A stretch of DNA of 64,000 nucleotides from an uncultured Candidatus Berkelbacteria bacterium (GTDB lineage: Bacteria > Patescibacteriota > UBA1384 > UBA12157), in contig CAIRFN010000005.1 in the NCBI GenBank assembly GCA_903877885.1, forward strand, positions 17,956-81,955, in the 5' to 3' direction. The notes beneath the pieces are model-generated. The model saw nothing but the letters and a program-made list of their open reading frames with translations. It made no database searches and was not told the origin of the DNA. This document shows positions 11,409-61,877 of this stretch, piece after piece. Made by a program: the position numbers and the translations under genes. How positions within the stretch are numbered: position 1 is the stretch's first letter; the number at the start of each line of letters is the position of its first letter.

Positions 11409-11468
11409 TTAAATTATAGATCGCCACGGTCTGCTGACCTCGCGATGACAATTTTTTTAGATCTATCT

Positions 11469-13145: not shown

Positions 13146-14177
13146 TTAACTCGCTAATTTAAGAACTAATAAGTCGAGGGCCACTTTTGGCTCAACCTGA
13201 CCGGTTTTCATCGCCAAATCGTTTTCCATTAATTCATGGTAGATTTTTTTCAGTTCTATCATATTGTAATTCTTAATTAAATTTAGGCTTTTACCGGCCA
13301 CAAACGGATGCAATCCAGCCCGTTTCGACAGCTCCCACTGCGAATTTACTCCGCGCTCGGCAAAATCCATCGTAATTAACAGGTTCCGATATTGATAAAC
13401 AATCATCGACAAAATATAGAGTTCATTTTCGCCATTATCTAAAAGTCGGTGTAATTCGTATAATGATTTTTTGACGTTTCGACTAGCGACCGCGTCAACC
13501 AGAGCAAAAATATCGCTGGAAGTTTGCGGTTTAACCAAGAGTTCGATATTTTGAACTGTAATAATATTGTCATCCTCGAGCCGGTGTGAGTCTTTATCGA
13601 ACACCGACATCGGGGATCCAGATCCCGGATCCTGAAGCCTTCCGGTCCGGGATGACAGACCTTTAAAAGTTGCAAGTTTGGCAATTTCATTTCCTAACCG
13701 CCACAAATCGGCGCCAACATATTCAAATAATTTTTGAACACCATCAGATGTAATCGTACCATTTAATTTAGCAACTTCTTCGCGAATCCAGGTTTTTGCA
13801 CCTTGTTCATCAAGCGGTTTAAATTCTTGGGTTTTTTGTTTAGCTAATTTTTTGTAAAGCGATGTCCGTTTATCTGGCACGCCTGCTTCAGCAAAAACCA
13901 AAACGGTTGTTTCCGGGACTTTCGGCAAAAATTCGCCGATTTTTTCTTGTTCATCCTTTTTTCCTTCTAACAACAAATTTTCAATAATCACCAGCCGACT
14001 TTTGGCTAAAAATGGATAGGCCAAAATCTGCCGAATCATAAAATCGGCTTTAGTCGTCTTGCCGTCAATCACCGCTAAATTTGTGTCCCCTAAAGACGCG
14101 GAAATATACTTTTCCTTCATCTCTTTAATTTTTTGTTTTAGTCTGTAAGTATCCTCGCCAAAAAGAAATAATATCAT
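13146..14177 (-). CDS. holA: DNA polymerase III delta subunit-like (HolA)
   Basis: 343 aa. N-terminus MILFLFGEDTYRLKQKIKEMKEKY and overall delta-subunit layout. It carries an in-frame family-A element at 13568-13657. Confidence 0.65.
   Translation of the reverse strand: MILFLFGEDTYRLKQKIKEMKEKYISASLGDTNLAVIDGKTTKADFMIRQILAYPFLAKSRLVIIENLLLEGKKDEQEKIGEFLPKVPETTVLVFAEAGVPDKRTSLYKKLAKQKTQEFKPLDEQGAKTWIREEVAKLNGTITSDGVQKLFEYVGADLWRLGNEIAKLATFKGLSSRTGRLQDPGSGSPMSVFDKDSHRLEDDNIITVQNIELLVKPQTSSDIFALVDAVASRNVKKSLYELHRLLDNGENELYILSMIVYQYRNLLITMDFAERGVNSQWELSKRAGLHPFVAGKSLNLIKNYNMIELKKIYHELMENDLAMKTGQVEPKVALDLLVLKLAS
13568..13657. repeat. Family-A MITE-like palindromic element (tgtcatcctcgag...gggatgaca) inserted in frame in holA
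   Basis: Termini tgtcatcctcgagccgg.. and ..ccggtccgggatgaca. Translated through as ..RLQDPGSGSPMSVFDKDSHRLEDDN.. Confidence 0.8.
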
Positions 14178-15637: not shown

Positions 15638-15691
15638 CCAACACGCGGTGGCCTCCACCGCTTTTTAAATTCTGGCAATCTTCTAACAAAT

Positions 15692-15727
15692 AAGGACAGT
15701 CCTTCAGCGCGTTAAAGGACTGTCCTT
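15692..15727. repeat. REP-like palindromic element, copy 2
   Basis: aaggacagtcctt-cagcgcgtta-aaggactgtcctt followed by ttt. Located just after the fabH-like gene. Confidence 0.8.
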
Positions 15728-15735
15728 TTATTCTT

Positions 15736-15826
15736 TGTCATCCTCGAGCCGGAGGGTACTCCGACATCAAGGATCCAGAAAATTCCTGGATCCCAGATCC
15801 TGAAGCCTTCCAATCTGGGATGACAT
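15736..15826. repeat. Family-A MITE-like element, intergenic copy
   Basis: tgtcatcctcgagccggagggtactccgacatcaaggatccag + aaaattc + ctggatcccagatcctgaagccttccaatctgggatgaca. Confidence 0.8.
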
Positions 15827-15831: not shown

Positions 15832-16803
15832 TTAAAACAAGCTCAACCGATTATCTTCCCTATTAGATTTATGAATTCTGGGAATTAAGGATTTAAACCC
15901 GAGGTCTAAAAAGAGTTTTTCCACTTTTTCCTTATCAAAATCGTGAATTTTGGCATCTGATAATTTAAACTCGATCGGCGCATCTGAAACAATTTGTGAC
16001 AATTTTTGGCTTAAATATGCTTGATCTTTGTACTCAATTAATAAGGAAAGAACTTTTTTGGAAATTTTTAACTTTTCTGATAGTTTTTGAATTTTGTCAT
16101 CCTGAGCTTGCGAAGGAACTTTTTTAGATTCTTCACTACCGTTCAGAATGACATTATATAAATTATCAAGTGTTTGAAATTTCTCGATTAGATTGCTGGC
16201 CGTTTTTTCACCTATTCCTGGAACTCCGGGAATATTGTCCGAAGAGTCGCCTTTGAGCGCCTTTAGGTCAACAAATTGACTTGGATTAACATTATACCGC
16301 TCTTTGACTTTATTCTCATCGTACATGACCGCTTGCTGGACACCGCGCGCCATCGAATAAACCTTTGTACTCTGATCAATCAGCTGAAAAGTATCCGAGT
16401 CACCTGTCACAATAATGTTTTCAATTCCACTATCTTCTATCCCCTTTATTATCGTTGCGGCAATATCTTCGCCTTCATATCCTTCGGCCGAAACAATCGG
16501 AATATTCATGGTCTCCAACACTTTTTTGCAATATTGAATTTGCGGCACCAAATCATCAGGCATCGGTTTGCGCGTCGCTTTGTAATCAACATATTCCAAG
16601 TGCCGTTTGGTTGGTTTGGGTAAATCAAAACAAGCCACCAAGTATTCAGGTTGGAGTTCTTTAATGGCAGCAAGTAAAGCCGAGGCAAAACCATAGGCCG
16701 CGTTAATCGGATGACCATCGCGCGTCAAAGTCGGCGGAATACCATAGAATGCCCTAAAAATTAAAGCAAACGAATCAATTAAAACCAAACGATTTTTTAT
16801 CAT
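15832..16803 (-). CDS. 5'-3' exonuclease (Pol I N-terminal-type / FEN-like)
   Basis: 323 aa. N-terminus MIKNRLVLIDSFALIFRAFYGIP with the acidic metal-binding clusters typical of 5'-nuclease domains. It carries an in-frame family-B element. Confidence 0.85.
   Translation of the reverse strand: MIKNRLVLIDSFALIFRAFYGIPPTLTRDGHPINAAYGFASALLAAIKELQPEYLVACFDLPKPTKRHLEYVDYKATRKPMPDDLVPQIQYCKKVLETMNIPIVSAEGYEGEDIAATIIKGIEDSGIENIIVTGDSDTFQLIDQSTKVYSMARGVQQAVMYDENKVKERYNVNPSQFVDLKALKGDSSDNIPGVPGIGEKTASNLIEKFQTLDNLYNVILNGSEESKKVPSQAQDDKIQKLSEKLKISKKVLSLLIEYKDQAYLSQKLSQIVSDAPIEFKLSDAKIHDFDKEKVEKLFLDLGFKSLIPRIHKSNREDNRLSLF
16095..16153. repeat. Family-B palindromic element (tgtcatcctgagc...gttcagaatgaca) in frame in the 5'-exonuclease gene
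   Basis: tgtcatcctgagcttgcgaaggaacttttttagattcttcactaccgttcagaatgaca. Translated as ..PSQAQDDKIQ.. Confidence 0.8.
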
Positions 16804-19258: not shown

Positions 19259-20217
19259 TTCCTTCTCATCTTCTCGATAAACTTAAATAAATTATACCAG
19301 CATTTGCTGTAAATAATATCCCAACTTCCGACTGTTTGGTATTTGATGCCGCCAAATTGCTCTTTAAATTGAGTGATACCGGCGTATTTATGTTTTTTGT
19401 CATTCTGAGCTTGCGAAGAATCTATAGATCCTTCACTGCGTTCAGGATGACTATTAAATGGCGCTACTGCTAATAAATCATAAAACTTGCAACCTTTGGC
19501 TTTGGCGATTTTAATCGCCTCCCAGTGCATTAGGTATGGTGCCATTACATTGCGATATTTTGATAAGCTTGCTCCATAAAGATAAGTCGCCATTTCGTCA
19601 AAAAAAGTAAAAATTCCAGCCGCCACGGGAATATCATTATATTTAACAACCAAAAGTTCAACGGAATTTATTTCTTTTAAGGTTTGAATTAATTTAGCAA
19701 AATATTTTTTTGGTCTGATTTGAAAACCATCTCGGCTAGCCGTTTCCTTAAAAATTTCGTAAAATTCGTCAATATTTTGTGATTTTTCAACAACTAAACC
19801 ATGTTTTTGCCCTACTTTAATATTATATCGGCCTTTTGGTTTCATTTTGGCCAAAATTTCTTCTTCAGATTTTGTTATATCCACAATTTGACGATATTCT
19901 GGCTGAATCTCTTCAAACGATTTAATGAGATGATTTTTCTTCAAAATTGTTGTAATTTTTCCACCAAAAACCGAGTTTTTTTGATTCAAAAAATCTAACC
20001 TTAAAAATATCGAGTGGGATTTTTTAGAAATTTCTTTAATTTTTGGTAAAAATTTGGGGAAATTGATTTTGTAAAAATCGACTTCCGGCGAGTACAGAAA
20101 ACTAAAACCCAGTGGTAATGGTTTTTCCAAAACTAAAACCTCATCAACCCAATGGGCTTTCCAACCTTGACTTTCGCGAAGCGCAGCCCATTCCTTTGTT
20201 TGTAGAATTGATTTCAT
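19255..20217 (-). CDS. FemAB-family peptidoglycan interpeptide aminoacyltransferase (FemX-like)
   Basis: 320 aa. N-terminus MKSILQTKEWAALRESQGW and overall Fem-family layout. It overlaps murE by 4 nt. It carries an in-frame family-B element. Confidence 0.65.
   Translation of the reverse strand: MKSILQTKEWAALRESQGWKAHWVDEVLVLEKPLPLGFSFLYSPEVDFYKINFPKFLPKIKEISKKSHSIFLRLDFLNQKNSVFGGKITTILKKNHLIKSFEEIQPEYRQIVDITKSEEEILAKMKPKGRYNIKVGQKHGLVVEKSQNIDEFYEIFKETASRDGFQIRPKKYFAKLIQTLKEINSVELLVVKYNDIPVAAGIFTFFDEMATYLYGASLSKYRNVMAPYLMHWEAIKIAKAKGCKFYDLLAVAPFNSHPERSEGSIDSSQAQNDKKHKYAGITQFKEQFGGIKYQTVGSWDIIYSKCWYNLFKFIEKMRRK
19398..19452. repeat. Family-B palindromic element in frame in the femX-like gene
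   Basis: tgtcattctgagcttgcgaagaatctatagatccttcactgcgttcaggatgac. Translated as ..HPERSEGSIDSSQAQND.. Confidence 0.8.
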
Positions 20218-20246: not shown

Positions 20247-21482
20247 ATGATGAAAGAAAAAATGAAAATATTAGCCATTGAATCAAGTTGTGACGAAACC
20301 GCGGCCGCCGTTATTGAAAATAATAACGGTGAGATTAAGATACATTCAAACATAATTTCTAGTCAAATTGATATTCACAAACAATTTGGTGGCGTTTTTC
20401 CCGAAATTGCTTCGCGTGCTCATGCCGAAAATATTATTCCGGTGATTAAAGAATCTTTAATTAATAGTATTGATGATGTCGATCTAATCGCTGTCACTGA
20501 CGGACCAGGTTTAATCGGTTCGCTTTTGGTTGGCGTCAATGTAGCCAAAACCTTGAGTTTCGCAAATAATATTCCGATCTTACCAATCAACCACTGGCTT
20601 GGTCATATCTATTCCTGTTTTACCGATGATAAAAATTTACCTCGATTCCCTCTTCTCGCCCTTATTGTTTCCGGTGGTCATACTGGTTTGGTGTTGATGA
20701 AAAGTCATACCGAGTACATTCAAATCGGCGCTACACTTGATGACGCCGCTGGCGAAGCTTTTGATAAAGTAGCAAAACTCTTAGAATTAGGTTATCCTGG
20801 CGGACCGGCGATTTCAGCTGCGGCTGAAGAATATAAAAAAGAATGTCATTCCGGTCCAGATGGTAATACTGGAACCGGAATCCAGGCCTGGATTCCCGAT
20901 GTCGAGTTGCCACTCGGCTCGAGAATGACAATTTCCTTTCCGAGAGCCATGCTTAATTCTAAAGATTATAATTTAATGTCAATTAAATTTCCGCGGGCCA
21001 TGATGCAATCAGGGAACTATAATTTCTCATTTTCAGGGTTAAAAACTTCTGTACTAAACAAAGTTCGAACTTTAACTGAAAATTGGAAATTGAGAACTGA
21101 AAATTTTGCCCCCGTAGTTGCCTATGAATTTCAACAATGCGTCATTGATATTTTAATTGGTAAAACTTTGAAAGCGGCTGAAGAATTTAAGCCAAAATCA
21201 ATTCTTCTTTGCGGCGGCGTTTCAGCAAATAAGGAATTAAGAGAACAAATGAAAAAAGCTATTTTGTCATTCCGGACCCCTCCTGTCATTCCGGACCGGT
21301 TGGCAACAGGATCCGGAATCCAGGAAAAAACGAATGACAAGATTAATTTTTTCTGTCCGCCCATCGAATTAACCGGCGATAACGCGGCCATGATCGGTAT
21401 TGCCGCAGCCTATCAAATCAACGCTGGCGTTAAACCAACTACATATAATAATGTAAATGCGAACTCAAATTTGAAATTGTAA
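20247..21482 (+). CDS. tsaD: tRNA N6-adenosine threonylcarbamoyltransferase TsaD (Kae1/Gcp family)
   Basis: (M)KILAIESSCDETAAAVIEN.. N-terminus with the His metal site. At 411 aa it is longer than typical, because of two in-frame element insertions plus a 17-codon tandem duplication. An alternative start exists at the ATG at 20262. Confidence 0.9.
   Translation: MMKEKMKILAIESSCDETAAAVIENNNGEIKIHSNIISSQIDIHKQFGGVFPEIASRAHAENIIPVIKESLINSIDDVDLIAVTDGPGLIGSLLVGVNVAKTLSFANNIPILPINHWLGHIYSCFTDDKNLPRFPLLALIVSGGHTGLVLMKSHTEYIQIGATLDDAAGEAFDKVAKLLELGYPGGPAISAAAEEYKKECHSGPDGNTGTGIQAWIPDVELPLGSRMTISFPRAMLNSKDYNLMSIKFPRAMMQSGNYNFSFSGLKTSVLNKVRTLTENWKLRTENFAPVVAYEFQQCVIDILIGKTLKAAEEFKPKSILLCGGVSANKELREQMKKAILSFRTPPVIPDRLATGSGIQEKTNDKINFFCPPIELTGDNAAMIGIAAAYQINAGVKPTTYNNVNANSNLKL
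20844..20930. repeat. Family-A MITE-like element in frame in tsaD (copy 1)
   Basis: tgtcattccggtccagatggtaatactggaaccggaatccag gc ctggattcccgatgtcgagttgccactcggctcgagaatgaca. Translated as ..CHSGPDGNTGTGIQAWIPDVELPLGSRMT.. Confidence 0.8.
21263..21340. repeat. Family-A MITE-like element in frame in tsaD (copy 2, with a duplicated left terminus)
   Basis: ttgtcattccggacccctcc tgtcattccggaccggttggcaacaggatccggaatccag gaaaaaacgaatgacaa. Translated as ..ILSFRTPPVIPDRLATGSGIQEKTNDK.. Confidence 0.75.
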
Positions 21483-21888: not shown

Positions 21889-24039
21889 ATGCAAGAATTA
21901 CCATCAAATTACAATTATAAAGAAACTGAAGACAAAATTTATGCGCTGTGGGAAGAAGCCGGCGCGTTTAAACCAGTTATTGATCCTAATCAAAAACCAT
22001 ATACGATTGTGATTCCGCCACCAAATGTGACTGGTTCTCTTCATATGGGTCATGCTTTAAATAACACAATTCAAGATATTTTAATTCGTCGCTCTCGGAT
22101 GCGTGGCGTGCCAACTCTATGGATTCCCGGAACTGATCATGCCGGTATTGCTACTCAAAATGTGGTGGAAAAAAAGTTGGCTAAAGAAGGCAAAACTCGT
22201 CAAGAACTTGGGCGCGAAGAGTTCACCAAAGAAGTTTGGGATTGGGTTGATCAATATGGCAACACTATTATTGGACAGCTCAAGAAAATGGGTTGTTCTT
22301 GCGATTGGTCCAGACAGCGTTTTACCATGGATGAAGGCTATTCAGAAGCGGTTAAAGTCGCGTTCAAAAATTACTATGATAAGGGTTATATTTATCAAGG
22401 TGAACGAGTGATCAACTGGTGTACCCGTTGTCAAACTGCCTTATCTGATATCGAAGTCGAACATATTGATCAAAACGCTAAACTATATTTTTTTAAATAT
22501 GATAAAAATTTTCCGATCACCATTGCCACTACGCGACCAGAGACAAAGCTTGGCGATACAGGTGTAGCGGTCAATCCGAAAGACAAAAGATATCAGGATT
22601 ACATTGGTAAAACTTTCAAGGTTAATTTTTGCGGTGTCGACCGCGAGATTCGGGTTTTTGCTGACATTAGTATTGATATAACCTTTGGCACTGGCGCCGT
22701 CGGAGTCACTCCAGCGCATTCTTTGGTTGACTATGAAATGGCCGAAAAAAATGGCTTGGATATTATTAAAGTGATTGATCAATATGGGAAAATGACCAAA
22801 GAAGCGGGAACAGAATTTGAAGGTTTGAAAGCAACTGAAGCGCAAGCCAAAGTCATCGAAATGTTGGAAAAAGCTGGGCTGATGGAAAAAGTGGAAGAAA
22901 TCCAAAACGCGATCAGTGTGTGTTATCGCTGTAATCGACCGATTGAGCCTCAACCGTCAAAACAATGGTTTTTAAAGATGTCGGAATTAGCAAAACCAGC
23001 GATTGAAGCGGTTAAATCTGGTCAAATTAAATTCACACCAGACCGTTGGACCAAAGTTTATTTAGACTGGATGGAAAATTTGCGCGACTGGTGCATTTCT
23101 CGCCAAATCTGGTGGGGGCACACCATTCCAATTGAAGGCGAAACTGATGTTTTGGACACTTGGTTTTCGTCAGCCTTGTGGCCGTTTGCCACACTTGGTT
23201 GGCCCAATAAAACTGAAGACCTAAAATATTTTTATCCGACCACCACACTTTCCACTGCCCGCGATATTATTTATCTGTGGGTGGCACGAATGATTTTTTC
23301 AGGGCTTGAATTTACCAACGAAATTCCATTTTCACAGGTTTATATTCATCCAACGGTTTTCAATAAAGAAGGTAAACGCATGTCCAAATCTTTGGGCACC
23401 GGCGTCGATCCTTTGGAACTGATCGAGAAATACGGTGCCGATGCCACGCGATTTGGTCTTACCTATATTAATACCGGGATTCAAGATTTGAAATTTGACG
23501 AAGAAGCTATTGGTGCTGGCAAAAAATTTGCCAATAAGTTGTGGAATATCACCAGATTCATGTTGATGAGCATTTGTCATTCCGGTCCGGATGGCTCCGG
23601 AACCGGAATCCAGGAAAATGATAATCTGGATTCCAGATCAGGTTGCCAACCAGTCTGGAATGACAAGATGGAACCAAGAACTGAAGCCGATAAAATCATT
23701 CTTGAAAAACTTAATGCCGTTATTAAATCAACTGACAAAAATCTTGATGAATTTAAATTTGGCCAAGCGGCGCATGATTTGTATGATTTCGTCTGGCACG
23801 ATTTGGCCGACGTATATATAGAAGAAAGCAAAGTGACCGCGAACGGTCATCCCGAGCCGAAGTCCGGCGAGGGAACCCCTGATTTTTCAGTATTACTTTA
23901 TGTAATAGTAACTTCGATTAAACTTTTGCACCCGATTATGCCGTTTGTAACAGAAGAAATCTGGCAAAAACTCTACGAAGATAAATTAGTTGATGAAAGA
24001 ATGCTGATTACGGCAAAATGGCCAAAAGCACAAGAATAG
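21889..24039 (+). CDS. valS: Valyl-tRNA synthetase (compact form)
   Basis: PPPNVTGSLHMGHAL HIGH region, KMSKS (GKRMSKSLG) and anticodon-binding region. Carries an in-frame family-A element at 23575-23665. Confidence 0.9.
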   Translation: MQELPSNYNYKETEDKIYALWEEAGAFKPVIDPNQKPYTIVIPPPNVTGSLHMGHALNNTIQDILIRRSRMRGVPTLWIPGTDHAGIATQNVVEKKLAKEGKTRQELGREEFTKEVWDWVDQYGNTIIGQLKKMGCSCDWSRQRFTMDEGYSEAVKVAFKNYYDKGYIYQGERVINWCTRCQTALSDIEVEHIDQNAKLYFFKYDKNFPITIATTRPETKLGDTGVAVNPKDKRYQDYIGKTFKVNFCGVDREIRVFADISIDITFGTGAVGVTPAHSLVDYEMAEKNGLDIIKVIDQYGKMTKEAGTEFEGLKATEAQAKVIEMLEKAGLMEKVEEIQNAISVCYRCNRPIEPQPSKQWFLKMSELAKPAIEAVKSGQIKFTPDRWTKVYLDWMENLRDWCISRQIWWGHTIPIEGETDVLDTWFSSALWPFATLGWPNKTEDLKYFYPTTTLSTARDIIYLWVARMIFSGLEFTNEIPFSQVYIHPTVFNKEGKRMSKSLGTGVDPLELIEKYGADATRFGLTYINTGIQDLKFDEEAIGAGKKFANKLWNITRFMLMSICHSGPDGSGTGIQENDNLDSRSGCQPVWNDKMEPRTEADKIILEKLNAVIKSTDKNLDEFKFGQAAHDLYDFVWHDLADVYIEESKVTANGHPEPKSGEGTPDFSVLLYVIVTSIKLLHPIMPFVTEEIWQKLYEDKLVDERMLITAKWPKAQE
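23575..23665. repeat. Family-A MITE-like element in frame in valS
   Basis: tgtcattccggtccggatggctccggaaccggaatccag...ctggattccagatcaggttgccaaccagtctggaatgaca. Translated as ..CHSGPDGSGTGIQENDNLDSRSGCQPVWNDK.. Confidence 0.8.
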
Positions 24040-24074: not shown

Positions 24075-24451
24075 TGTCATTCCAGACCGGCCGGAGGCAG
24101 GATCTGGAATCCAGAATAAAATGAATAATTATTATGTGTATATTTTGACTAGCAGAAGAAACGGCACTTTATATATTGGCGTAACTAATGATCTGATTAA
24201 AAGAATATGGGAACATAAAAACCATAGTAAAAAAGGATTTACAGAAAAATATAACATTTGCCAATTGATATACTTTGAGCAAACTAATAATATAAACTCC
24301 GCTATTAATAGAGAAAAACAATTAAAATCATGGAATAGAAAATGGAAACTTGACTTAATTGAGAAAGTCAATCCTGATTGGAAAGATTTATATCAAGAAT
24401 TGTTGTAACTGGATTCCCGATGTCGGATGCCATCCGACTCGAGAATGACAA
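24075..24451 (+). mobile_element. Full-length family-A element carrying a GIY-YIG nuclease ORF between its two terminal modules
   Basis: Left module tgtcattccagaccggccggaggcaggatctggaatccag (24075-24114). ORF 24121-24408. Right module ctggattcccgatgtcggatgccatccgactcgagaatgaca (24410-24451). The short MITE copies (e.g. 38811-38904) are these two modules joined directly. Confidence 0.75.
24121..24408 (+). CDS. GIY-YIG nuclease family protein (UPF0213/YhbQ-like, about 95 aa)
   Basis: ..YYVYILTSRRNGTLYIGVTNDLIKRIWEHKN.. with the GIY...YIG motifs. The start is trimmed to the ATG at 24121. The track frame is open from 24061 through the left terminal module. Confidence 0.85.
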   Translation: MNNYYVYILTSRRNGTLYIGVTNDLIKRIWEHKNHSKKGFTEKYNICQLIYFEQTNNINSAINREKQLKSWNRKWKLDLIEKVNPDWKDLYQELL

Positions 24452-31046: not shown

Positions 31047-31086
31047 AATCAACTGGATTTGACAGATTATTCCCCCTTGACAACAG

Positions 31087-31115
31087 GGGAGTTTTGTGGT
31101 ATATTTATATGTTCT
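31087..31115 (+). promoter_or_regulatory. Near-consensus promoter TTGACA, 17-bp spacer, extended TGgTATATT
   Basis: ccttgacaacaggggagttttgtggtatatt. It sits within a weak cccc/gggg hairpin and drives the GC-rich gene at 31279. A second TTGACA lies at 31069. Confidence 0.5.
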
Positions 31116-34311: not shown

Positions 34312-34350
34312 TTGCCTCCTTACTTTACCTTTCTAGCATAGATTAACCTC

Positions 34351-34379
34351 TTGACAAATGTCAAATTATATGGTATATT
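34351..34379 (+). promoter_or_regulatory. Near-consensus promoter whose -35 lies in the palindrome TTGACAAATGTCAA. 17-bp spacer, extended TGgTATATT
   Basis: cctcttgacaaatgtcaaattatatggtatatt. It shares the CTCTTGACAAAT(A)GTCAA motif with the promoter at 36780. Confidence 0.55.
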
Positions 34380-34448
34380 ACGATGTTATTGCTAGAAGAA
34401 TATTTTAGCAATTTAGTATATTAAAAATCAAGCTTAAGGAGAGGAAAA

Positions 34449-36763: not shown

Positions 36764-36833
36764 TGTCAAGAGAAAGCTCTTGACAAATAGTCAACAATGT
36801 AGTATAGTTGGTTGTTATCTTCCGGAAGATAAC
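36764..36833 (+). promoter_or_regulatory. Promoter plus operator complex: a TGTCAAGA-n6-TCTTGACA palindrome overlapping the -35, TTGACA, 17-bp spacer, TATAGT, then a perfect 20-bp palindrome gttatcttccggaagataac
   Basis: tgtcaagagaaagctcttgacaaatagtcaacaatgtagtatagt... The palindrome at 36814-36833 sits at about +5 to +25. Confidence 0.55.
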
Positions 36834-37741: not shown

Positions 37742-37752
37742 ATACAGACCAA

Positions 37753-37788
37753 AAGGACAGTCCTTCAGCGCGTTAAAGGACTGTCCTT
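37753..37788. repeat. REP-like palindromic element, copy 3
   Basis: aaggacagtcctt-cagcgcgtta-aaggactgtcctt tt. It is followed by a ttgataccagatacc motif. Confidence 0.8.
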
Positions 37789-37839
37789 TTGGATAATCTG
37801 ACACTTGATACCAGATACCAAATGCTATATACTTGACCC

Positions 37840-38810: not shown

Positions 38811-38904
38811 TGTCATTCCAGACCGGACGGCGTCAGGATCTGGAATCTAGGATAATTGTTTCTGGATTCCCGATGTCGGATTGCCATCCGACTCGGGAAT
38901 GACA
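38811..38904. repeat. Family-A MITE-like element, intergenic reference copy
   Basis: tgtcattccagaccggacggcgtcaggatctggaatctag gataattgttt ctggattcccgatgtcggattgccatccgactcgggaatgaca. The whole element is a long imperfect palindrome. Confidence 0.85.
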
Positions 38905-38921: not shown

Positions 38922-40070
38922 TTATTTATTAACTTCTTTCTTCAGTTCTTCCACTTTATCCGTTCTCTCCCAAGGTAAATCTAATTCTGGTCTACCGAAA
39001 TGGCCATAGGCGGCAATTTTTTGGTAGATTGGTTTTCGAAGATCTAAGGCTTGGATAATCATCCCTGGTCGTAAATCAAAAACTTTACTCACCGCTTGAG
39101 CGATTTTATCGTCTTCAATGGTGCCAGTACCAAACGTATCAATTCGCACCGACATTGGTTCAGCTCGACCGATGGCATAAGCAATCTGCACTTCACAGCG
39201 TTCGGCTAATTTTGCGGCAACGATATTCTTGGCCACCCATCTGGCCGCATAGCTACCCGACCGATCAACTTTACTCGGATCTTTTCCAGAGAAACAACCG
39301 CCACCGTGACGCGCATAGCCACCATAAGTATCAACAATAATTTTGCGGCCGGTCAGTCCAGTATCACCTTGCGGCCCACCAATCACAAACCGACCGGTGG
39401 TGTTGACATAGTAGTTTGTATTTTGAAGCAAGGATTTAGGGATAACTTTTTCAATTACTTTCTCGATAATTTCTTTTTTTAAGATCGATGTTTTAATATT
39501 TTCATCATGTTGTGCCGCAATTAAAACCGATTCGATGCGGACTGGTTTGTCGCCATCATATTCAACTGTAACCTGGCTTTTGCCGTCTGGTCGCAAGCCT
39601 TTGACAATCCCCTTTTTTCGAACTTCAGCCAAGCGTTGGCAAAGTTTGTGAGCCAAAACAATTGGCAAAGGCATTAATTCTTTGGTTTCGCGACAAGCAT
39701 AACCAAACATCAAACCTTGATCACCGGCGCCTAGATTTTCCAAGTCTTCGACCAAAGGACAGTCCTTTTGTTCCTTTAAGGACTGTCCTTTACTAAACGC
39801 ATCAACACCCTGTGCAATATCGGCTGATTGTTCCTTAACCGCCACCATTACACCGGAAGTTTCCCAGTGAAAACCATATTCGGCATTTGTATAGCCAATT
39901 TGTTTAATGACGTTGCGAGCGATTTTCGGAATATCGACATATGTTTTAGTGGTAATTTCTCCAGCGATAATACAAACGCCGTTGGTCAGCAATGTTTCGC
40001 AAGCGACTCGTCCTTGCGGATCGTCAGTTAAAATTGCATCGAGTACCGCATCACTAATCTGATCAGCCAT
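38922..40070 (-). CDS. metK: S-adenosylmethionine synthetase
   Basis: [35 protein letters not shown] and the rest of the canonical MetK sequence. Carries an in-frame REP-like insertion at 39765-39800 (..[17 protein letters not shown]..). Confidence 0.95.
39765..39800. repeat. REP-like palindromic element inserted in frame inside metK
   Basis: aaggacagtcctt-ttgttccttt-aaggactgtcctt. It adds about 12-16 residues relative to the conserved MetK loop before GAGDQG. Confidence 0.8.
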
Positions 40071-40183
40071 TTTGTCAAGGATGCCCTTCAGTAACAGATT
40101 CTGATGTAAAGAATTTATTCATAGGACTATCTCCTTTCTAGAGCATAAAGCTTCCTCATATTTTTTATATTTATCTAATTTTT

Positions 40184-40277
40184 TGTCATTCCAGACCGGA
40201 TGGCATCAGGATCTGGAATCCAGAGTTAATTATTTCTGGATTCTTGATGTCGGAGTACCCTCCGGCTCGAGAATGAC
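40184..40277. repeat. Family-A MITE-like element in the metK 5' leader, between the riboswitch terminator and the start codon
   Basis: tgtcattccagaccggatggcatcaggatctggaatccag...ctggattcttgatgtcggagtaccctccggctcgagaatgaca. Confidence 0.8.
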
Positions 40278-40292
40278 ATAAAAAAACAAAAA

Positions 40293-40412
40293 TCACCGCA
40301 AGCGGTGAAATATATAAAAACATCTTTCCCGCAAGGGGTCGGAGGTAGCACCTAAATTAATGGGTTGCTGGTGGATCATCGGGCCGAATCCCTCACCACA
40401 CTCTTGATATTA
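40293..40412 (-). ncRNA. SAM-I (S-box) riboswitch with an intrinsic terminator, upstream of metK
   Basis: Minus-strand read: AUCAAGAGUGUGGUGAGGGAUUCGGCCCGAUGAUCCACCAGCAACC...GGUGCUACCUCCGAC. This matches the conserved SAM-I core AGAGnGGnGGAGGGAnnGGCCCGAUGAnnCCnnGCAACC...GGUGCUA. It is followed by a terminator tcaccgcttgcggtga plus a T-run at 40280-40308. Confidence 0.8.
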
Positions 40413-40528
40413 AAATTAATTTTTAACTAAATTTATCATATTATAACCATCTAACTTTTGTCAAACTCTTGCCTGGAAACAATTTTTGCTTTAAGATGTA
40501 AATATTAAATTTATATTTTAGGAGCAAA

Positions 40529-45136: not shown

Positions 45137-45527
45137 TGTCATCCTCGAGCCGGTTTGAGCTTTGTCGAAAACCGACATCAAGGATCCATCAAAATAAAAA
45201 GCTATTTCGTTTACATTTTAGCCAGTCAGAAAAACGGAACATTATATATCGGTGTTACAAATGATATTATAAGAAGGATTTGGGAGCACAAAAATAAAGC
45301 TATTCAAGGTTTTACAGATAAATATAGAATTGATAAATTAGTTTATTTCGAAGAAACACCAGATATTAATTCAGCTATTAAGAGAGAAAAACAATTAAAA
45401 TTATGGAGCCGTTCCTGGAAAATAGATTTGATAGAAAAGAATAATCCTGATTGGAAAGATTTATATCAAGATTTGTTATAATGGATCCTTGATGTTGGAG
45501 CGCTTCGCTTCCAACTCGAGGATGACA
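45137..45527 (+). mobile_element. Second full-length family-A element carrying a GIY-YIG ORF between its terminal modules, inserted between atpA and atpG
   Basis: Left module tgtcatcctcgagccggtttgagctttgtcgaaaaccgacatcaaggatcca. ORF to 45481. Right module tggatccttgatgttggagcgcttcgcttccaactcgaggatgaca. Confidence 0.75.
45155..45481 (+). CDS. GIY-YIG nuclease family protein (second copy)
   Basis: ..YFVYILASQKNGTLYIGVTNDIIRRIWEHKN..REKQLKLWSRSWK.. The frame is open from a TTG inside the left terminal module. There is no ATG near the conserved N-terminus, so the start is uncertain. Confidence 0.75.
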   Translation: MSFVENRHQGSIKIKSYFVYILASQKNGTLYIGVTNDIIRRIWEHKNKAIQGFTDKYRIDKLVYFEETPDINSAIKREKQLKLWSRSWKIDLIEKNNPDWKDLYQDLL

Positions 45528-45548: not shown

Positions 45549-45611
45549 ATGTCATTCTCGAGCCGAATGGTAATTCGACCTGCCTGACGGCAGGCAGGCA
45601 TCAAGAATCCA
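45549..45611. repeat. Family-A solo module with an embedded 20-nt palindrome (cctgcctgacggcaggcagg)
   Basis: tgtcattctcgagccgaatggtaattcgacctgcctgacggcaggcaggcatcaagaatccaa. Confidence 0.7.
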
Positions 45612-45617
45612 ACTGTA

Positions 45618-45659
45618 TGTCATTCTCGAGTCGGATGGGATCCGACATCAAGAATCCAG
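45618..45659. repeat. Family-A solo module, tandem direct copy
   Basis: tgtcattctcgagtcggatgggatccgacatcaagaatccag. Confidence 0.7.
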
Positions 45660-45712
45660 ATAAATAAAAAAGGCCAATGCGTAAACGCAAAGGCCGAAAT
45701 CCGGTCTTAAAG

Positions 45713-46025: not shown

Positions 46026-47066
46026 ATGCCAAGTACACAAGAATTTCGTAGAAGAATTAAATCGGTCAGTTCGACCAAACAGATTACCAAAGCAATGGAA
46101 ATGATTGCTTCTATTAAGATGCAAAAATCTGTCAAAACTATTGCCCAGGCTCGAGCCTATATCCAAAACGCATGGAATATTTTACATTTACTGTCTGAAA
46201 AAATATTAAGCGACGATCACGCGCTGATTAATCCTAAAGATCATGCCAAAAAAACAGCCGTGATTTTAATTACTTCTGACCGCGGTTTATGCGGTTCATA
46301 TAATTCAGAAGTGATCAAGAAGCTAACATCATTCAAAAATGTCATCCTCGAGACGGAGGGTACTCCGACATCAAGGATCCAGGACCTGGATTCCAGATCT
46401 GGTTCCCAACCAGTCTGGAATGACAATACGATTGATATCATTGCCATCGGTAAAGTCGGCGCCGCGTTTGTTAACAGATATAAAATCGGCAAACTGATCG
46501 CTGAATTTAAAGGTTTTGAAAATAATATTTCCGTTGAAGATGTCATTCCGATTTCCAAACTGACGAATGGTGAATATATGGCTGGAAATTATGACAAAGT
46601 GGTAGTGATTTATTCTCATTTCATTTCTTCGCTTAAACAAGTCCCGGTCGTCAAACAAATTTTGCCAATTGTCGAAGATCATATCGATCATCCGGAATTA
46701 TGGGAAGGAAATAATGTCATCCTCGAGCCGGAGGGTACTCCGACATCAAGGATCCAGGACCTGGATTCCCGATCCGGAGGCCATCCGGTCGAGAATGACA
46801 AAAACAATACTGAATACAAATTTGAACCCAATCCTGATGAAGTTTTTGATGGCGTCTTGCGACAAATTTTACGCACCCAAATTTTCGGTGCCATTTTAGA
46901 AGCCAACGCTTCTGAACATTCGGCCCGTATGGTGGCCATGAAAAATGCCACCGACAATGCCACCGATTTAGTTGATGAATTAAAATTAGTATATAACAGC
47001 ATCCGCCAAGGAAACATCACTTCGGAAATCGCCGAAATTAGTGGTGCCGCCGAGGCGATGAAATAA
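46026..47066 (+). CDS. atpG: F0F1 ATP synthase subunit gamma (lengthened by two in-frame MITE insertions)
   Basis: Conserved N-terminus (..RRRIKSVSSTKQITKAMEMIASIKMQK..) and C-terminus (..NSIRQGNITSEIAEISGAAEAM). At 346 aa it is longer than typical. Confidence 0.9.
   Translation: MPSTQEFRRRIKSVSSTKQITKAMEMIASIKMQKSVKTIAQARAYIQNAWNILHLLSEKILSDDHALINPKDHAKKTAVILITSDRGLCGSYNSEVIKKLTSFKNVILETEGTPTSRIQDLDSRSGSQPVWNDNTIDIIAIGKVGAAFVNRYKIGKLIAEFKGFENNISVEDVIPISKLTNGEYMAGNYDKVVVIYSHFISSLKQVPVVKQILPIVEDHIDHPELWEGNNVILEPEGTPTSRIQDLDSRSGGHPVENDKNNTEYKFEPNPDEVFDGVLRQILRTQIFGAILEANASEHSARMVAMKNATDNATDLVDELKLVYNSIRQGNITSEIAEISGAAEAMK
46340..46425. repeat. Family-A MITE-like element in frame in atpG (copy 1)
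   Basis: tgtcatcctcgagacggagggtactccgacatcaaggatccag gac ctggattccagatctggttcccaaccagtctggaatgaca. Translated as ..VILETEGTPTSRIQDLDSRSGSQPVWND.. Confidence 0.8.
46715..46800. repeat. Family-A MITE-like element in frame in atpG (copy 2)
   Basis: tgtcatcctcgagccggagggtactccgacatcaaggatccag gac ctggattcccgatccggaggccatccggtcgagaatgaca. Translated as ..VILEPEGTPTSRIQDLDSRSGGHPVEND.. Confidence 0.8.
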
Positions 47067-49124: not shown

Positions 49125-49170
49125 TGTCATCCTGAGCGTAGCGAAGGATCTATCATAACGCGTCGCAAGC
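49125..49170. repeat. Family-B element, degenerate or truncated copy
   Basis: tgtcatcctgagcgtagcgaaggatctatcataacgcgtcgcaagc. Left terminus is intact; the right terminus is missing. Confidence 0.55.
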
Positions 49171-57696: not shown

Positions 57697-60600
57697 ATGG
57701 CCGACGATAATATTAAATTTACCACTAAAACCAACCAAACCTTTGATGTTGAGGTTGAAAAAACCAAAAGTTCGACCGAAAAAACTGAATTAGGTACTAC
57801 TACTTCGACTGCTGGATCAGAAAATAATAGTGGAAAAGCTTCACCAAGTCAAACTGGATCGACTGAACAATCCTCTAAACCCGGTTCTACCCAATCCCAA
57901 CCACAAAATAATAATCAACCAGAAAATCAGCAAAATCAACAAGATCAGCAAAACCAAAAAAACAAAGAAGAAAAAGAAAAAGCTGATCAAAAAGATAAGG
58001 ATAAAGAAAAAGAAAAAGCCGAAAAAGAAGGCCAAGAACCAAAAGAAAAACCAGCCGAAGGTGAGAAACCTGGCGAACCAGGTCAACCAGCCGAAGGTAC
58101 TCCGGGCGAAGGTATCGGCAATGAACCAGCTGGTGTACCTGAAGGCGGATTACCAGAAGGAGCTGGCCCAGTTGGAACAGAAGCGGGGACAACCGGTTTA
58201 GGTGGTGAAGCGGCAGTCGGTGGCGAAGGCGCAGCCGCGGCTGGTGCTGAAGGAGCAGCCGTAGCCGAAGGTGCCGCTGTCGCCGAGGGAGCAGCAGTTA
58301 CTGAAGGCGTGGCTGTAGCCGAGGGAGCCGCGGTGGCTGCTGGCGCTACTGCCGGTGCGCCGGTTTTATTAATCGTTTTAGGAGTTTTAGTAGTTATTGT
58401 ATTGATTCTTTTGGTAATTTTTGGCGTCATGGCTTGCCAAGCCGATCAAGGCGAATTTGGCAAAGGAACCAAACAAGAAGCCGGACCAAATTATACCAAT
58501 ACCAAAACAGTCTTAGCTAGCGCCGGAACACCAGCTAAAAGCGCTCAAGGCAACACTGTTAGCGGTCAAAATAAAATTAATCTTAATGCCACTGATCAAA
58601 AATATATTGCTGCCGGTAGCACCGACAAACGGTTGATGGATGCCTTGCACTATGTTGACCAAAAACATCTAAGTCTTGGTGTTAGTCACGTTATTTCTGG
58701 CTATAACGGCTCGGCGAAAGTTAGTTACAATTCTAATACCTTGGCTTCCGAAATTGATGCCAAATATAGTCTATTTCATCCGGTAGGCATTAGCTATGCC
58801 GCGCTAGATTATTCAAACATTCCTGATTTAACCGAATCTGGCGCCTTGGACAATTCTCAAGTGACAGCCAATGTTTCGGCCCACCAAGAAGGTTTGGCAA
58901 TTGATATTTCTACGATTGATTTTGTCTATCACGACCACGAATATGATCCGCTCTGCCCAGATGGTTTTCCACCGTTTGACAAGGTTTGGTATAGCGACGG
59001 TAGTTCGGATTCTAGTGGTATTTTGGGTAGCTTAATTAATCCCGAGGGTTTAAAAGCTAATTTAGATAGTTTGACTTCGCAAATCACGAATTTAACTGCA
59101 TCTTTAAACGATTCAACTATTACCAAAATTTTAAATCAAGCTAATCCCGATCAAGCCAGCAATCTATTGAAAATCGTTCAAAATGCCAGTAAAAATAGTA
59201 ATGGCGATTTGGCTAGTATTAATAATATTTTCCAACAAAACAACGACTCTGTTAATGCTCTGCAAGCCCAAGTTGCTAAATACGCTGGCGCCATTAACGC
59301 CAGTTCTCAAGACCAAGCGACAAAAGATAAAGAAACTAACGCTCTAATTAAAATTCAAGCAATGGTTGAGTCTAATACTAGCCAATGGAGCCAAATCGGC
59401 AATGTGACTGGCATCCATACTGGTAGCATCCAACGAGATATTGATGATCTTAGTGATTTAGCTAATGGTCAATTCGACCCAAATCGCACTAATGATTTGA
59501 TTAACCACTTAACGAGCGATTTTAACAGTATTACCAATTTTAAGGGCATCAGTGGCTTAGGCCAAGCCAGCCAGTTGACTCAAAGTTTTGGTGATATTAC
59601 CAAATATCTAACCAACGGTAATAGTTCCGATGTTAATGCTATGGCCGATACTTTTAATAAATTTATTTCTGATCCTGGTATCAGTTCTGGTGGTCTTGGT
59701 TCAAGTTCTAAAAATTTCAACACAGTATTAAATGATTTGAGTAAAAATCCGAGTTTAAAAAGTTTAGCTAATTTGGATATTGCAAAGTTGGGAAACCTTG
59801 GTGATTTTGGTAAATTAACTAATCTGGCCAATTTGGATAATTTATCCAATCTCACTAAAATCGGCGGTTTAGGTAGTTTAAGTAGTTTGCCTGGTTTAAG
59901 CAATTTAAGTAATATTCCAGGTGTTAGTGGATTAATTAGTGGTCTAAGTGGGCTTTTGGGCGGCAATGAATTATTACGCATTCCCTGCTCCAGCTACAGC
60001 CCAGTACCAGATTCGAGTAACCAGTTGCCATCGATTCCCGGGTTAAGTCAAGCTCTTGGAACAGTTACTAATAGTTTAAACCAATTGAATAATGTGATGA
60101 ATACTTCAGTTATAGACGCCTTAAATAAAATTGATCCAACATTAACAAAACAACTTCAAAACTCGATTTCTCAAATAACTGGCATTGCCCCAGGTCAACA
60201 AGCGACCGATATCAATGCTATCACCAGCCAAAAACTGGCTTCTAACCTCTCGACTGTTAAAGATTTATTTAATAAAAATTCCGATACGGTTAATTTATTA
60301 CAAAAACAAGTCAGCCAAATTGCGTCGGCAATTAATCATTCCTCTCAAGATCAGAATACTAAAAATCAAGAAACTCAGGCTTTAGTTAAACTTCAAGCCA
60401 TGGTTGAAACTAATTCTAACCAATGGAATCAATTTATGTCTGATTCTGTTAACCAAAGAGGAATGATCGATCAAGACCTTAGTTTCATCAATTATGTCAC
60501 CGGCCAAAACTCGAATAAAGTCGATGCCAATACGGTTAAAGGTGTACTTGATCGAGCAATCAACGATATTCAAGCGACAAATTTTAATCAAAACAATAGT

Positions 60601-61437
60601 CAGGTTGCTCAAGCCAGAGATTTAAATACTGCCTTTAACGATATTACTAATCAGTTAAAAACAATTTTACCAACAAACGGTTCGACTAGTTTTAGCGCAA
60701 GCCAAGCCAATCAAATTGCTGATACATTTCAGAATTTCTTAAAATCAGATTCTAATCCAGCCACCGGCACTAAAAACTTCTCTAGCATCATGAATACTTT
60801 AAGTAAAAATCCTGATTTGAAAGCTTTAGCCAACTTGGATGTCAGTAAACTTGGTGATCTGGGAGATTTTGGCAATCTTAGTAAATTGGCAAATGTTGGC
60901 AATTTAAGCAGTCTCACAAATATTGGCGGCTTAGGCAGCCTTGGTAGTTTAACTGGTTTTTCTAAAATTGCTTCTAGCCTGGGTAATATTCCCGGATTAG
61001 GCAGTCTCTTTGGCGGTCTGACCGGCGGTACCAATACGACCTGGAACGGTTTGCCAGCCGTCGCTATTCCGATTCAAGTGGGTTGGCAAGATCGAAAACC
61101 ATCAGTCGGCTGGATCACTGGCGATTCCAGTAATTTGATTACCAATGCTATTACTAATGCTTTGGTTAATTATTTCGTTTATCAACCGGAAGCGCGTCGC
61201 AAAACCCATCAACTGGTTGGTGAATTATTACAATTTCCATATGATATGGTAGCAGCAAGTGGTAAATCTAGCGATAAATATAATTATCGCTTAAGCCAGA
61301 TTATTACTTACTCTGATGAACGCGATGTCAAACCATTTTGGGATAAATTAACCGATCTCTATGGTTTACCTCGCACATCAAATCTTGGTCTTTTTGCCAT
61401 GCCAGAAGCTTGGGATCATGTTCACATCGGATACTAA
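57697..61437 (+). CDS. Giant surface protein (1246 aa) with three regions: an acidic/low-complexity N-terminus with a Gly/Ala/Val/Glu repeat, a single TM, and two ~350-aa tandem repeat units
   Basis: RBS taggaggggaacATG. TM helix PVLLIVLGVLVVIVLILLVIFGVMA. Repeat units around aa 490-800 and 820-1110, e.g. ..NTVLNDLSKNPSLKSLANLDIAKLGNLGDFGKL.. vs ..SIMNTLSKNPDLKALANLDVSKLGDLGDFGNL.. Confidence 0.6.
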   Translation: MADDNIKFTTKTNQTFDVEVEKTKSSTEKTELGTTTSTAGSENNSGKASPSQTGSTEQSSKPGSTQSQPQNNNQPENQQNQQDQQNQKNKEEKEKADQKDKDKEKEKAEKEGQEPKEKPAEGEKPGEPGQPAEGTPGEGIGNEPAGVPEGGLPEGAGPVGTEAGTTGLGGEAAVGGEGAAAAGAEGAAVAEGAAVAEGAAVTEGVAVAEGAAVAAGATAGAPVLLIVLGVLVVIVLILLVIFGVMACQADQGEFGKGTKQEAGPNYTNTKTVLASAGTPAKSAQGNTVSGQNKINLNATDQKYIAAGSTDKRLMDALHYVDQKHLSLGVSHVISGYNGSAKVSYNSNTLASEIDAKYSLFHPVGISYAALDYSNIPDLTESGALDNSQVTANVSAHQEGLAIDISTIDFVYHDHEYDPLCPDGFPPFDKVWYSDGSSDSSGILGSLINPEGLKANLDSLTSQITNLTASLNDSTITKILNQANPDQASNLLKIVQNASKNSNGDLASINNIFQQNNDSVNALQAQVAKYAGAINASSQDQATKDKETNALIKIQAMVESNTSQWSQIGNVTGIHTGSIQRDIDDLSDLANGQFDPNRTNDLINHLTSDFNSITNFKGISGLGQASQLTQSFGDITKYLTNGNSSDVNAMADTFNKFISDPGISSGGLGSSSKNFNTVLNDLSKNPSLKSLANLDIAKLGNLGDFGKLTNLANLDNLSNLTKIGGLGSLSSLPGLSNLSNIPGVSGLISGLSGLLGGNELLRIPCSSYSPVPDSSNQLPSIPGLSQALGTVTNSLNQLNNVMNTSVIDALNKIDPTLTKQLQNSISQITGIAPGQQATDINAITSQKLASNLSTVKDLFNKNSDTVNLLQKQVSQIASAINHSSQDQNTKNQETQALVKLQAMVETNSNQWNQFMSDSVNQRGMIDQDLSFINYVTGQNSNKVDANTVKGVLDRAINDIQATNFNQNNSQVAQARDLNTAFNDITNQLKTILPTNGSTSFSASQANQIADTFQNFLKSDSNPATGTKNFSSIMNTLSKNPDLKALANLDVSKLGDLGDFGNLSKLANVGNLSSLTNIGGLGSLGSLTGFSKIASSLGNIPGLGSLFGGLTGGTNTTWNGLPAVAIPIQVGWQDRKPSVGWITGDSSNLITNAITNALVNYFVYQPEARRKTHQLVGELLQFPYDMVAASGKSSDKYNYRLSQIITYSDERDVKPFWDKLTDLYGLPRTSNLGLFAMPEAWDHVHIGY

Positions 61438-61460
61438 AAAGTAGACGGTATCCGACAATA

Positions 61461-61495
61461 AAGGACTGTCCTTCAACGCGCTAAAGGACAGTCCT
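61461..61495. repeat. REP-like palindromic element, copy 5
   Basis: aaggactgtcctt-caacgcgcta-aaggacagtcctt tttt. Followed by atacttgatactaaatcctaaatactagatac. Confidence 0.8.
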
Positions 61496-61540
61496 TTTTA
61501 AATACTTGATACTAAATCCTAAATACTAGATACTAATTTT

Positions 61541-61813: not shown

Positions 61814-61823
61814 CTTTACCTAA

Positions 61824-61859
61824 AAGGACAGTCCTTCAGCGCGTTAAAGGACTGTCCTT
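61824..61859. repeat. REP-like palindromic element, copy 6
   Basis: aaggacagtcctt-cagcgcgtta-aaggactgtcctt t. Located between convergent genes. Confidence 0.8.
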
Positions 61860-61877
61860 TATTGTTTGTGATTTTTC

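Follow-up and report, generated by a model that had tools for sequence, protein, structure and literature searches.

This report concerns the metK locus of an uncultured Candidatus Berkelbacteria bacterium (Patescibacteriota), in a stretch of 64,000 nucleotides (nt) of contig CAIRFN010000005.1 (GenBank assembly GCA_903877885.1, positions 17,956 to 81,955), which we call the window. Two features of this locus are considered here: a putative +1 frameshift site 15 codons into the gene, and a short palindromic element of a multi-copy family, which lies between a SAM-I riboswitch (SAM, S-adenosylmethionine) and the start of metK. The gene and its leader are on the minus strand of the window, so that leader features are read downward in coordinate. 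The features are as follows:

40435 to 40464, minus strand: promoter-like site, TTGACA (40464-40459), an 18-nt spacer and TATGAT (40440-40435), 11 of 12 consensus positions; sigma-70-like by consensus match only
40317 to 40413, minus strand: SAM-I (S-box) aptamer, Rfam RF00162
40279 to 40308, minus strand: intrinsic terminator from a terminator scan, stem-loop 40308-40293 and U-tract 40292-40279
40184 to 40278, no strand assigned: 95-bp palindrome of two inverted NTS/SRM-like modules, 40184-40223 reading on the plus strand and 40236-40278 on the minus strand
40139 to 40183, minus strand: AT-rich spacer, 45 nt, absent from relatives too and with no second copy in the window
40120 to 40137, minus strand: Shine-Dalgarno (SD) sequence AAAGGAG (40137-40131) and the true metK ATG (40122-40120); the N-terminus matches that of the relatives' MetK
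40074 to 40089, minus strand: +1 frameshift cassette, GAAGGG (40089-40084), CAT (40083-40081), CCT (40080-40078), skipped T (40077) and GAC (40076-40074)
38922 to 40076, minus strand: second open reading frame of metK (ORF2), frame +1, 384 codons and a stop, ending …EVNK
38811 to 38904, no strand assigned: second copy of the palindromic element, 17 nt past the metK stop, which gives metK a copy on either side

The covariance-model scan aligned the aptamer to the whole of RF00162 (model positions 1-108 of 108) at 57.6 bits, against a gathering threshold of 44.4 (E = 1e-10), and SAM-I is the sole Rfam family found in the whole 64-kb window. The terminator stem reads TCACCGCTTGCGGTGA and is followed by the U-tract TTTTTGTTTTTTTA. 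In the ligand-free minimum free energy (MFE) fold, the 5' half of the terminator stem pairs in silico with GCGGGAAAGAUG on the 3' side of the aptamer, forming an antiterminator. Aptamers homologous to that of the window lie upstream of metK in three relatives (L084, L001 and L110), and in the window metK is directly downstream of the aptamer and terminator. The preliminary description of this DNA had reported a textbook SAM-I aptamer and terminator in the metK leader, and this is borne out: we found no degeneration, and both the aptamer and the expression platform are intact. The riboswitch is complete and undamaged by these models and looks functional; SAM binding and response are predicted, and metK would be controlled by transcription termination. 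The arrangement resembles the S-box metK leaders of Firmicutes, i.e., a promoter, a four-way-junction aptamer, a competing antiterminator and terminator, and then metK, and the riboswitch taken alone is ordinary. Unlike those leaders, however, the leader in the window has 145 extra nt from the terminator to the ribosome-binding site (RBS), and the gene that it controls needs a frameshift.

The start of metK had been placed at 40070 in the preliminary description. The ATG at 40070 is an internal methionine codon, whereas the true ATG, at 40122, stands behind the SD and is still downstream of the palindromic element. From the SD onward the sequence reads AAAGGAG-N8-ATG AAT AAA TTC TTT ACA TCA GAA TCT GTT ACT GAA GGG CAT CCT TGA. 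The first open reading frame (ORF1, 40122-40078) consists of 15 codons in frame 0, and its peptide is the universal MetK N-terminus; the frame-0 stop TGA follows at 40077-40075, the codon GAC is read in the +1 frame, and one extra T (40077) parts the two frames. Together, ORF1 and ORF2 give a MetK of 399 amino acids (aa) with the N, M and C domains of Pfam S-AdoMet_synt, 87% identical to the protein of an unshifted relative (P0001). The region of the frameshift is the same, base for base, in three further independent assemblies (two from ENA, one from Logan) and thus is not an assembly error. The motif SD-N3-CCY-TGA occurs once in the window, in metK, and UGA is a rare stop codon there, ending 4 of 51 ORFs. 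As judged from the sequence, expression of metK in the window would require a +1 ribosomal frameshift at CCU UGA C, 15 codons into the gene. Transcriptional slippage was ruled out, as there is no homopolymer at CCTTGAC. Termination followed by reinitiation at AUG 40070 was judged unlikely: it would lose a conserved segment of 12 residues, which we take to include the catalytic His and the Asp/Lys of MetK, yet the peptide upstream of the shift is kept.

The same interruption was found in other lineages. Two proteins recovered by homology and starting at an internal methionine, P0025 (78% identical) and P0097 (75%), show it in their DNA; locus L088 reads GAA GGG CAT CCT T GAC, and loci L086 and L087 read …CCC T GAC. 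A metagenome scan with the pattern GARTCNGTNACNGARGGNCAYCCNTGAYAARATG, in which the third positions of the Gly and Pro codons were left free, gave 18 more loci. The total is 21 loci (L086, L087, L088 and L089-L106) in 18 distinct lineages, with MetK proteins 56-79% identical to that of the window. In a rough neighbour-joining tree, shifted metK genes are spread over four or more clades, with unshifted genes in between, and several of the frameshifted loci recur in 2-3 independent assemblies. Wherever the contig is long enough, ORF2 is complete; L089, which is the only locus without GGG, alone has a broken downstream ORF.

Codon choice within the cassette was compared by Fisher tests between the 18 shifted lineages, which are not fully independent of each other, and 76 unshifted metK genes, which are mostly from other phyla. 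The glycine codon is GGG in 17 of 18 shifted lineages versus 17 of 76 unshifted genes (p = 1.6e-8), and the proline codon is CCT in 15 of 18 (CCC in the remaining 3/18) versus 7 of 76 (p = 1e-9). Smaller differences were seen for GAA (Glu), 17/18 versus 39/76 (p = 9e-4), and for GAC (Asp), 17/18 versus 48/76 (p = 0.01); the tetranucleotide UGAC is present in 17 of the 18 shifted lineages. It should be noted that the scan pattern fixed ESVTEGHP and ATG, so that conservation of these is circular. We consider it very probable that the shift at GAA GGG CAY CCY UGA C is programmed, both in the window and in the other lineages, which number at least 17 and are mostly uncultured.

The closest known counterpart is the +1 frameshift of prfB (PMC5009743). 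As in prfB, the short ORF1 of metK ends in UGA followed by C, with most of the protein in the +1 frame; an SD-like stimulator stands exactly 3 nt upstream of the shift codon (GAAGGG-CAU-CCU), where pairing with the anti-SD is inferred; and the cassette is conserved across diverged lineages. Unlike in prfB, the shift codon of metK is CCU or CCC (Pro) rather than CUU, and only CCC_U re-pairs perfectly; the SD-like element is also weaker (AAGGG), constrained by Glu-Gly coding. A prfB-like programmed frameshift in metK is apparently unreported: we found no report of metK frameshifting in the full-text literature searched, an absence that is not proof of novelty, and 'metK' is absent from the 2016 frameshifting review of Atkins (PMC5009743). 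If the shift is confirmed, the annotation of metK in these genomes as a pseudogene, or as a gene truncated at its N-terminus, is wrong.

Several observations were made on individual loci of this set. In L086 and L088, an ORF of 272-273 aa with a faint LAGLIDADG_3 match lies on the same strand directly upstream of the shifted metK (L086, 527-1348; L088, 622-1440), where other relatives have the riboswitch. This ORF hinted at an intron or intein as the reason for the truncated N-terminus of the MetK calls in the two loci (378 aa), but this was ruled out, as the N-terminal codons are immediately upstream in the other frame. Protein length was discarded as a proxy for frameshifting: P0014 (378 aa) is the product of an unshifted gene with a mis-called start. 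In assembly GCA_040961015.1, the shifted metK of L088 (contig JBFOMX010000503.1) stands by its usual NIF3-like neighbour, and an unshifted metK, L111 (JBFOMX010000333.1), 86% identical to L088, lies near Fic and helix-turn-helix (HTH) genes; this assembly may hold paralogues or be a mixed bin.

The m1G37 modification of tRNA is made by TrmD, a SAM-dependent enzyme, and release factor 2 (RF2) owes its activation to PrmC, a methyltransferase that also depends on SAM. When tRNA-Pro lacks m1G37, +1 frameshifting at CCN codons increases, according to two papers (PMC7577736, PMC8384417). In the window, m1G37 placed on tRNA-Pro by TrmD would keep +1 slippage at CCN down, and RF2 methylated by PrmC would terminate faster at UGA. 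A shortage of SAM would weaken both brakes, so that frameshifting would rise and MetK would be restored; this negative feedback on translation would be coupled in series to the SAM-I riboswitch, which acts on transcription. That the metK frameshift is itself a SAM sensor is a speculative proposal, which we regard as possible but rather doubtful. Seventeen shifted loci with 400 nt or more upstream of metK were scanned; 15 of them have no SAM riboswitch, and a SAM riboswitch is present in 3 of 5 unshifted Patescibacteria relatives, a pattern consistent with a regulatory role of the frameshift. Strict mutual exclusion of riboswitch and frameshift does not hold, as both occur together in the window and in L089, and both are missing from the unshifted L111 and L016; what is left is a weak anticorrelation.

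The palindromic element of the metK leader, reading TGTCATTC…GAATGACA from 40278 to 40184, directly follows the U-tract of the terminator and has an AT-rich central loop (40224-40235). It had been described as a complete palindrome of 94 bp at 40184-40277; the palindrome is real, although it is one base longer, i.e., 95 bp, ending at 40278. The strong hairpin expected in read-through transcripts is also predicted, with a folding energy of -40.9 kcal/mol (z = -5.4 versus shuffles), and the position of the element between the terminator and the coding start holds for the corrected start at 40122 too. We compared the leader to those of related genomes. In L084/L107 (MetK identity of 87%), L001 (79%) and L110 (78%), the aptamer and terminator are followed by 5 nt or less to the RBS and ATG, and the element is absent; in the leader alignment only the window carries the 95 nt of the element and 45 nt of spacer extra. 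No NTS/SRM-like modules were found in the metK loci of the relatives searched. Because the U-tract of the relatives directly abuts the RBS, the comparison of these empty leaders supports the claim that the element is an insertion, and a lineage-specific one. L084 and L001 likewise lack the second copy (38811-38904) in the corresponding intergenic region. Within the species, both of the two other assemblies that reach far enough upstream carry the complete element, and a third contig starts inside it; the spacing of 459 nt to the upstream gene is equal at each of the five other locations recorded for the identical MetK, two of which are recorded without DNA. We saw no presence/absence polymorphism in the assemblies listed for the species, and the element appears fixed within it. 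As a separate observation, the spacer between the element and the SD holds a possible upstream ORF of 10 codons (40129-40161, minus strand; AUG AGG AAG CUU UAU GCU CUA GAA AGG AGA UAG; peptide MRKLYALERR), which overlaps the metK SD, ends 6 nt before the metK AUG and has no SD of its own; it may be due to chance.

The element belongs to a family that is abundant in the window. At least 12 copies of 84-95 bp, fully palindromic and mostly tail-to-tail pairs of modules, are present in the 64 kb, built from 25 half-modules (versus 0-6 in shuffled sequence); the 43-nt element pattern has 5 close matches in the window and 0 in 100 shuffles. All modules share one fold, in which the 4-nt tag TGTC is followed by a hairpin ATTCC (or ATYCT)…GGAAT (GRAAT) and then by the 4-nt tag CCAG. 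Stem sequences vary among the modules with the pairing kept, and stems are about 12-14 bp long. No strand asymmetry of the modules (G·T versus A·C pairs) was detected, the summed folding energies being -209 and -212 kcal/mol. In addition to the short copies, the family includes long forms with a nuclease-like gene, and copies within genes:

24075 to 24450, plus strand: long element, two end modules and a GIY-YIG ORF of 95 aa (ATG 24121, stop 24408), Pfam PF01541, E = 1.8e-14
45137 to 45527, plus strand: second long element, GIY-YIG ORF 71% identical to the first; ATA replaces ATG, so that it may be degenerate or inactive
13568 to 13657: in-frame copy within holA
20844 to 20930 and 21265 to 21339: in-frame copies within tsaD
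23575 to 23665: in-frame copy within leuS
46340 to 46425 and 46715 to 46800: in-frame copies within atpG

In both long copies, the GIY-YIG ORF occupies the exact position of the central loop of the short elements. The two ORFs match PF01541 with E-values of 1e-14 to 1e-16, and 5184 homologues of about 95 aa were found across many phyla, those with names being mostly 'GIY-YIG nuclease family protein'. The six intragenic copies are read through in frame, with all three phases used, and Pfam domains match on both sides of them. They would add 25-31 aa each, e.g., VILEPEGTPTSRIQDLDSRSGGHPVENDK, with diagnostic peptides including VILEPEGTPTSR; the atpG product has 346 aa in the window versus 307 aa in the 87% relative (L107), which has the ortholog without inserts. 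The intragenic copies have short, stop-free central loops, whereas the copy in the metK leader has stops in 5 of 6 frames; stop-free loops are what the survivorship of non-disruptive insertions would give.

The published system that these elements resemble most is that of the Ssn proteins. These are GIY-YIG nucleases with a single domain and a length of about 94 aa; their substrate is single-stranded DNA, which they cleave just upstream of a hairpin repeat (PMC11893778). In Neisseria this repeat is called NTS, with the consensus CGTCATTCCCGCGMAVGCGGGAATCYRG, and SRM is the general name (PMC11893778, Chenal et al. 2025); there are hundreds of copies of the repeat, and the nuclease gene typically lies between two repeats (NTS-ssnA-NTS). 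The same source notes that Rickettsia is among the genomes with over 300 SRMs. Like the NTS/SRM-SsnA system of Neisseria meningitidis, the elements of the window are highly multi-copy, their halves have a GTC-containing 5' tag, an ATTCC…GGAAT palindrome and a 3' tag C-Y-R-G (here CCAG), and a single-domain GIY-YIG gene of about 95 aa lies between two inverted modules. They differ in their stems, of about 12-14 bp versus about 6, in the mostly tail-to-tail arrangement of modules in pairs of 84-95 bp, and in the half of the copies that lie inside coding sequence, versus 2% for the Neisseria NTS (PMC11893778); the host is also different, as Patescibacteria are a phylum unmentioned in the main text of that paper. 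By the layout of its modules and by PF01541, we assign the element, by analogy, to SRM pairs, as a putative gene-less miniature of an ssnA-like cassette. By analogy with SsnA, a nuclease of this kind would cleave both strands at the outer borders of the element, as in a tail-to-tail pair each strand has a forward module at its 5' end; such cutting would account for the spread of the element.

The preliminary description called the insertion a MITE (miniature inverted-repeat transposable element). This label fits in part. Like a MITE, the element is short, non-coding and multi-copy, its termini are inverted repeats that also form the ends of a longer coding relative, and it shows presence/absence at orthologous sites (the metK leader and 3' region in relatives; the atpG insert in L107). 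Unlike a MITE, it has no visible target-site duplication, and its coding relative makes a small GIY-YIG nuclease and not a known transposase. All copies are bounded by T…A, possibly part of the element itself, and there is no longer direct repeat in 12 flank pairs; an empty site could not be aligned nucleotide by nucleotide. Repeats of REP/BIME type with RAYT (an IS200/IS605-like TnpA), an analogy drawn by the Ssn authors themselves (PMC11893778), are alike in that hairpin repeats are recognised as single-stranded DNA and a small cognate nuclease gene lies among its own repeats; here, however, the enzyme fold is GIY-YIG rather than HUH, and the repeat sequence is different. With regard to the copies within holA, tsaD, leuS and atpG, there is also a likeness to the Rickettsia palindromic elements, reportedly described by Ogata et al. 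in 2000, in that palindromic repeats are tolerated in frame in essential protein genes. Unlike those elements, the copy in the metK leader lies in the 5' untranslated region and not in a gene.

What, then, does the element do to metK? An effect on translation initiation had been proposed in the preliminary description, and we assessed it as the predicted unpaired probability of the SD and AUG, by partition-function folding of the leader with and without the element. This probability is 0.67 versus 0.67 for the SD and 0.78 versus 0.78 for the AUG; with accessibility the same, occlusion of the RBS by the element was ruled out and the proposed modulation of initiation is not upheld in silico. The MFE of the leader is -94.1 kcal/mol with the element and -51.5 kcal/mol without it, and the element forms a separate domain (about -42 kcal/mol) that holds the whole difference. 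As the element comes after the terminator, it cannot affect the termination decision: the insertion lies past the decision point and 46 nt before the SD, so that riboswitch logic and ribosome access would stay unchanged. No U-run that would make the element a second terminator follows it on either strand. Promoter-like sites in or beside the element (4 versus 5.1 expected) are not above shuffles; the only candidate for an outward promoter formed by the element end (ATGACA-18-AAAAAT, 9/12 matches) was rejected on the same grounds.

The most probable reading of the locus, in our judgement, is that of a miniature repeat of Ssn type, carried as a tolerated and neutral passenger in the intact SAM-I leader of a metK that is frameshifted and starts at 40122. 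Several points weigh against this reading. Neutrality is predicted from thermodynamic folding only, and the bracketing of metK by two copies could mean something at the DNA level. The published SRM motif, HGTCWYN(0-2)YYVSBRHN(0-5)WNVSBRGN(0-2)RNCYNB, has 0 matches on both strands of the window, because it does not accommodate stems and loops as long as those found here. The only solved relative of the GIY-YIG ORF found by sequence, UPF0213 protein BH0048 (1ZG2), is a weak match (E = 0.006), and the likeness to SsnA is drawn from the published description. No target-site duplication or excision footprint was seen at the copies, and Ssn-driven mobility is hypothetical for every member of the family.

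It is unlikely, although conceivable, that the element has been co-opted as a regulator of metK at the RNA level, acting on translation initiation or on the half-life of the mRNA. Such a role would fit the very stable structure (-40.9 kcal/mol, z = -5.4), the fixation of the element in the species with the same spacing in all five other places listed, and the folding result that the U-tract of the terminator and an A-run after the element can lengthen the stem. Nevertheless, the accessibility of the SD and AUG is the same with or without the element, the absence of a U-run on either strand speaks against a second terminator, relatives regulate metK without the element, and its presence in many unrelated contexts, including coding sequences, argues for selfish spread. 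Action on DNA seems improbable as well: here, the two bracketing copies (40184-40278 and 38811-38904) and an Ssn-type nuclease would control recombination or exchange of metK, as in the NTS-gene-NTS arrangement of Neisseria, which lowers the integration of transforming DNA (PMC11893778). Consistent with this, the first 90 nt of metK are 79-84% identical to distant frameshifted genes versus 77% to the nearest relative, with overall values of 70-73% versus 78%. This signal of recombination at the 5' end, and of an import of the cassette, amounts in sliding-window identity to about 6 nucleotides, however, and synteny around metK is conserved with the relatives. In addition, with about 6 intergenic copies for about 60 intergenic regions, some 0.6 bracketed genes per window are expected by our own estimate, so that one bracketed gene is expected by chance at this density of elements.

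If metK were instead a decaying pseudogene, the frameshift and the insertions would be signs of loss and the riboswitch a relic. There are four anomalies in this one gene (the frameshift, the leader insertion, a palindrome in the coding sequence and the 3' insertion), Patescibacteria have reduced genomes, and another frameshifted locus, L089, has a broken downstream ORF. However, the 384 downstream codons are intact and 87% identical to the unshifted relative, and 18 lineages, the most distant at 56% identity, have the identical shift position and cassette, followed by a full-length ORF2 if the contig is long enough. Synonymous choices are strongly non-random, as the frequencies of GGG (17/18 versus 17/76, p = 1.6e-8) and CCT (15/18 versus 7/76, p = 1e-9) indicate, the peptide upstream of the shift is kept while its codons vary synonymously, and the one locus without GGG is the broken L089; decay is thus quite improbable. 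We attach very little probability to a classical MITE derived from an insertion sequence (IS) and mobilised in trans by a transposase of DDE or other type, with the GIY-YIG genes as cargo or coincidence. The terminal inverted repeats, the small size and the many copies would agree with it, but no target-site duplication was seen and no transposase ORF with the element ends (TGTCATTCC…) was found in the 64 kb; the sole coding versions bear a GIY-YIG gene exactly at the loop position, twice, with 71% identity, and the end modules match repeats known with the Ssn nuclease family (PMC11893778).

Other repeats and signals were noted in the window. After the second long element, at 45550-45660, there is a cluster of two further modules; the palindrome CCTGCCTGACGGCAGGCAGG splits one of them. 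A shorter form related to the element, TGTCATCCTGAGCGTAGCGAAGGATCTA, with 5-bp stems, occurs at 16095-16153, 19398-19451 and 49125-49152, in tail-to-tail pairs of about 55-59 bp or singly; it forms a second SRM-like subfamily, nearer to the Neisseria NTS in size. A second repeat family, AAAGGACAGTCCTT-N11-AAGGACTGTCCTTT, has perfect 14-bp arms. Five of its copies (11372-11417, 15691-15736, 37752-37797, 61460-61505 and 61823-61868) stand just past the ends of plus-strand genes and are each followed by 3-5 T (at least 4 in four of the five), in a terminator-like manner; the sixth (39754-39799) lies inside metK, in frame, and codes for a loop that varies in length among the relatives. Three alike, strong promoter-like sequences, CTCTTGACAAA…TATGGTATATT, each with TTGACA and then an extended -10, are found at 31066-31115, 34340-34389 and 36769-36818. 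Finally, degenerate tandem repeats of 12/24/36 nt, coding for a stretch rich in Ala/Glu/Gly, occupy 58200-58331 in a very large ORF of 1246 aa (57697-61437).

The analysis of the element is mostly a clarification, of modest interest. It would extend the Ssn/SRM system to Patescibacteria; the gene-less pairs, the empty sites in relatives and the in-frame colonising of essential genes strongly suggest mobility, which bears on whether NTS-ssnA-NTS is mobile. The metK frameshift is an unexpected gain and the part worth pursuing. If it is confirmed, a central metabolic enzyme would join the very few cellular genes known to depend on +1 frameshifting, and there would be a testable link of SAM supply, methylation of tRNA and release factor, and maintenance of the reading frame.

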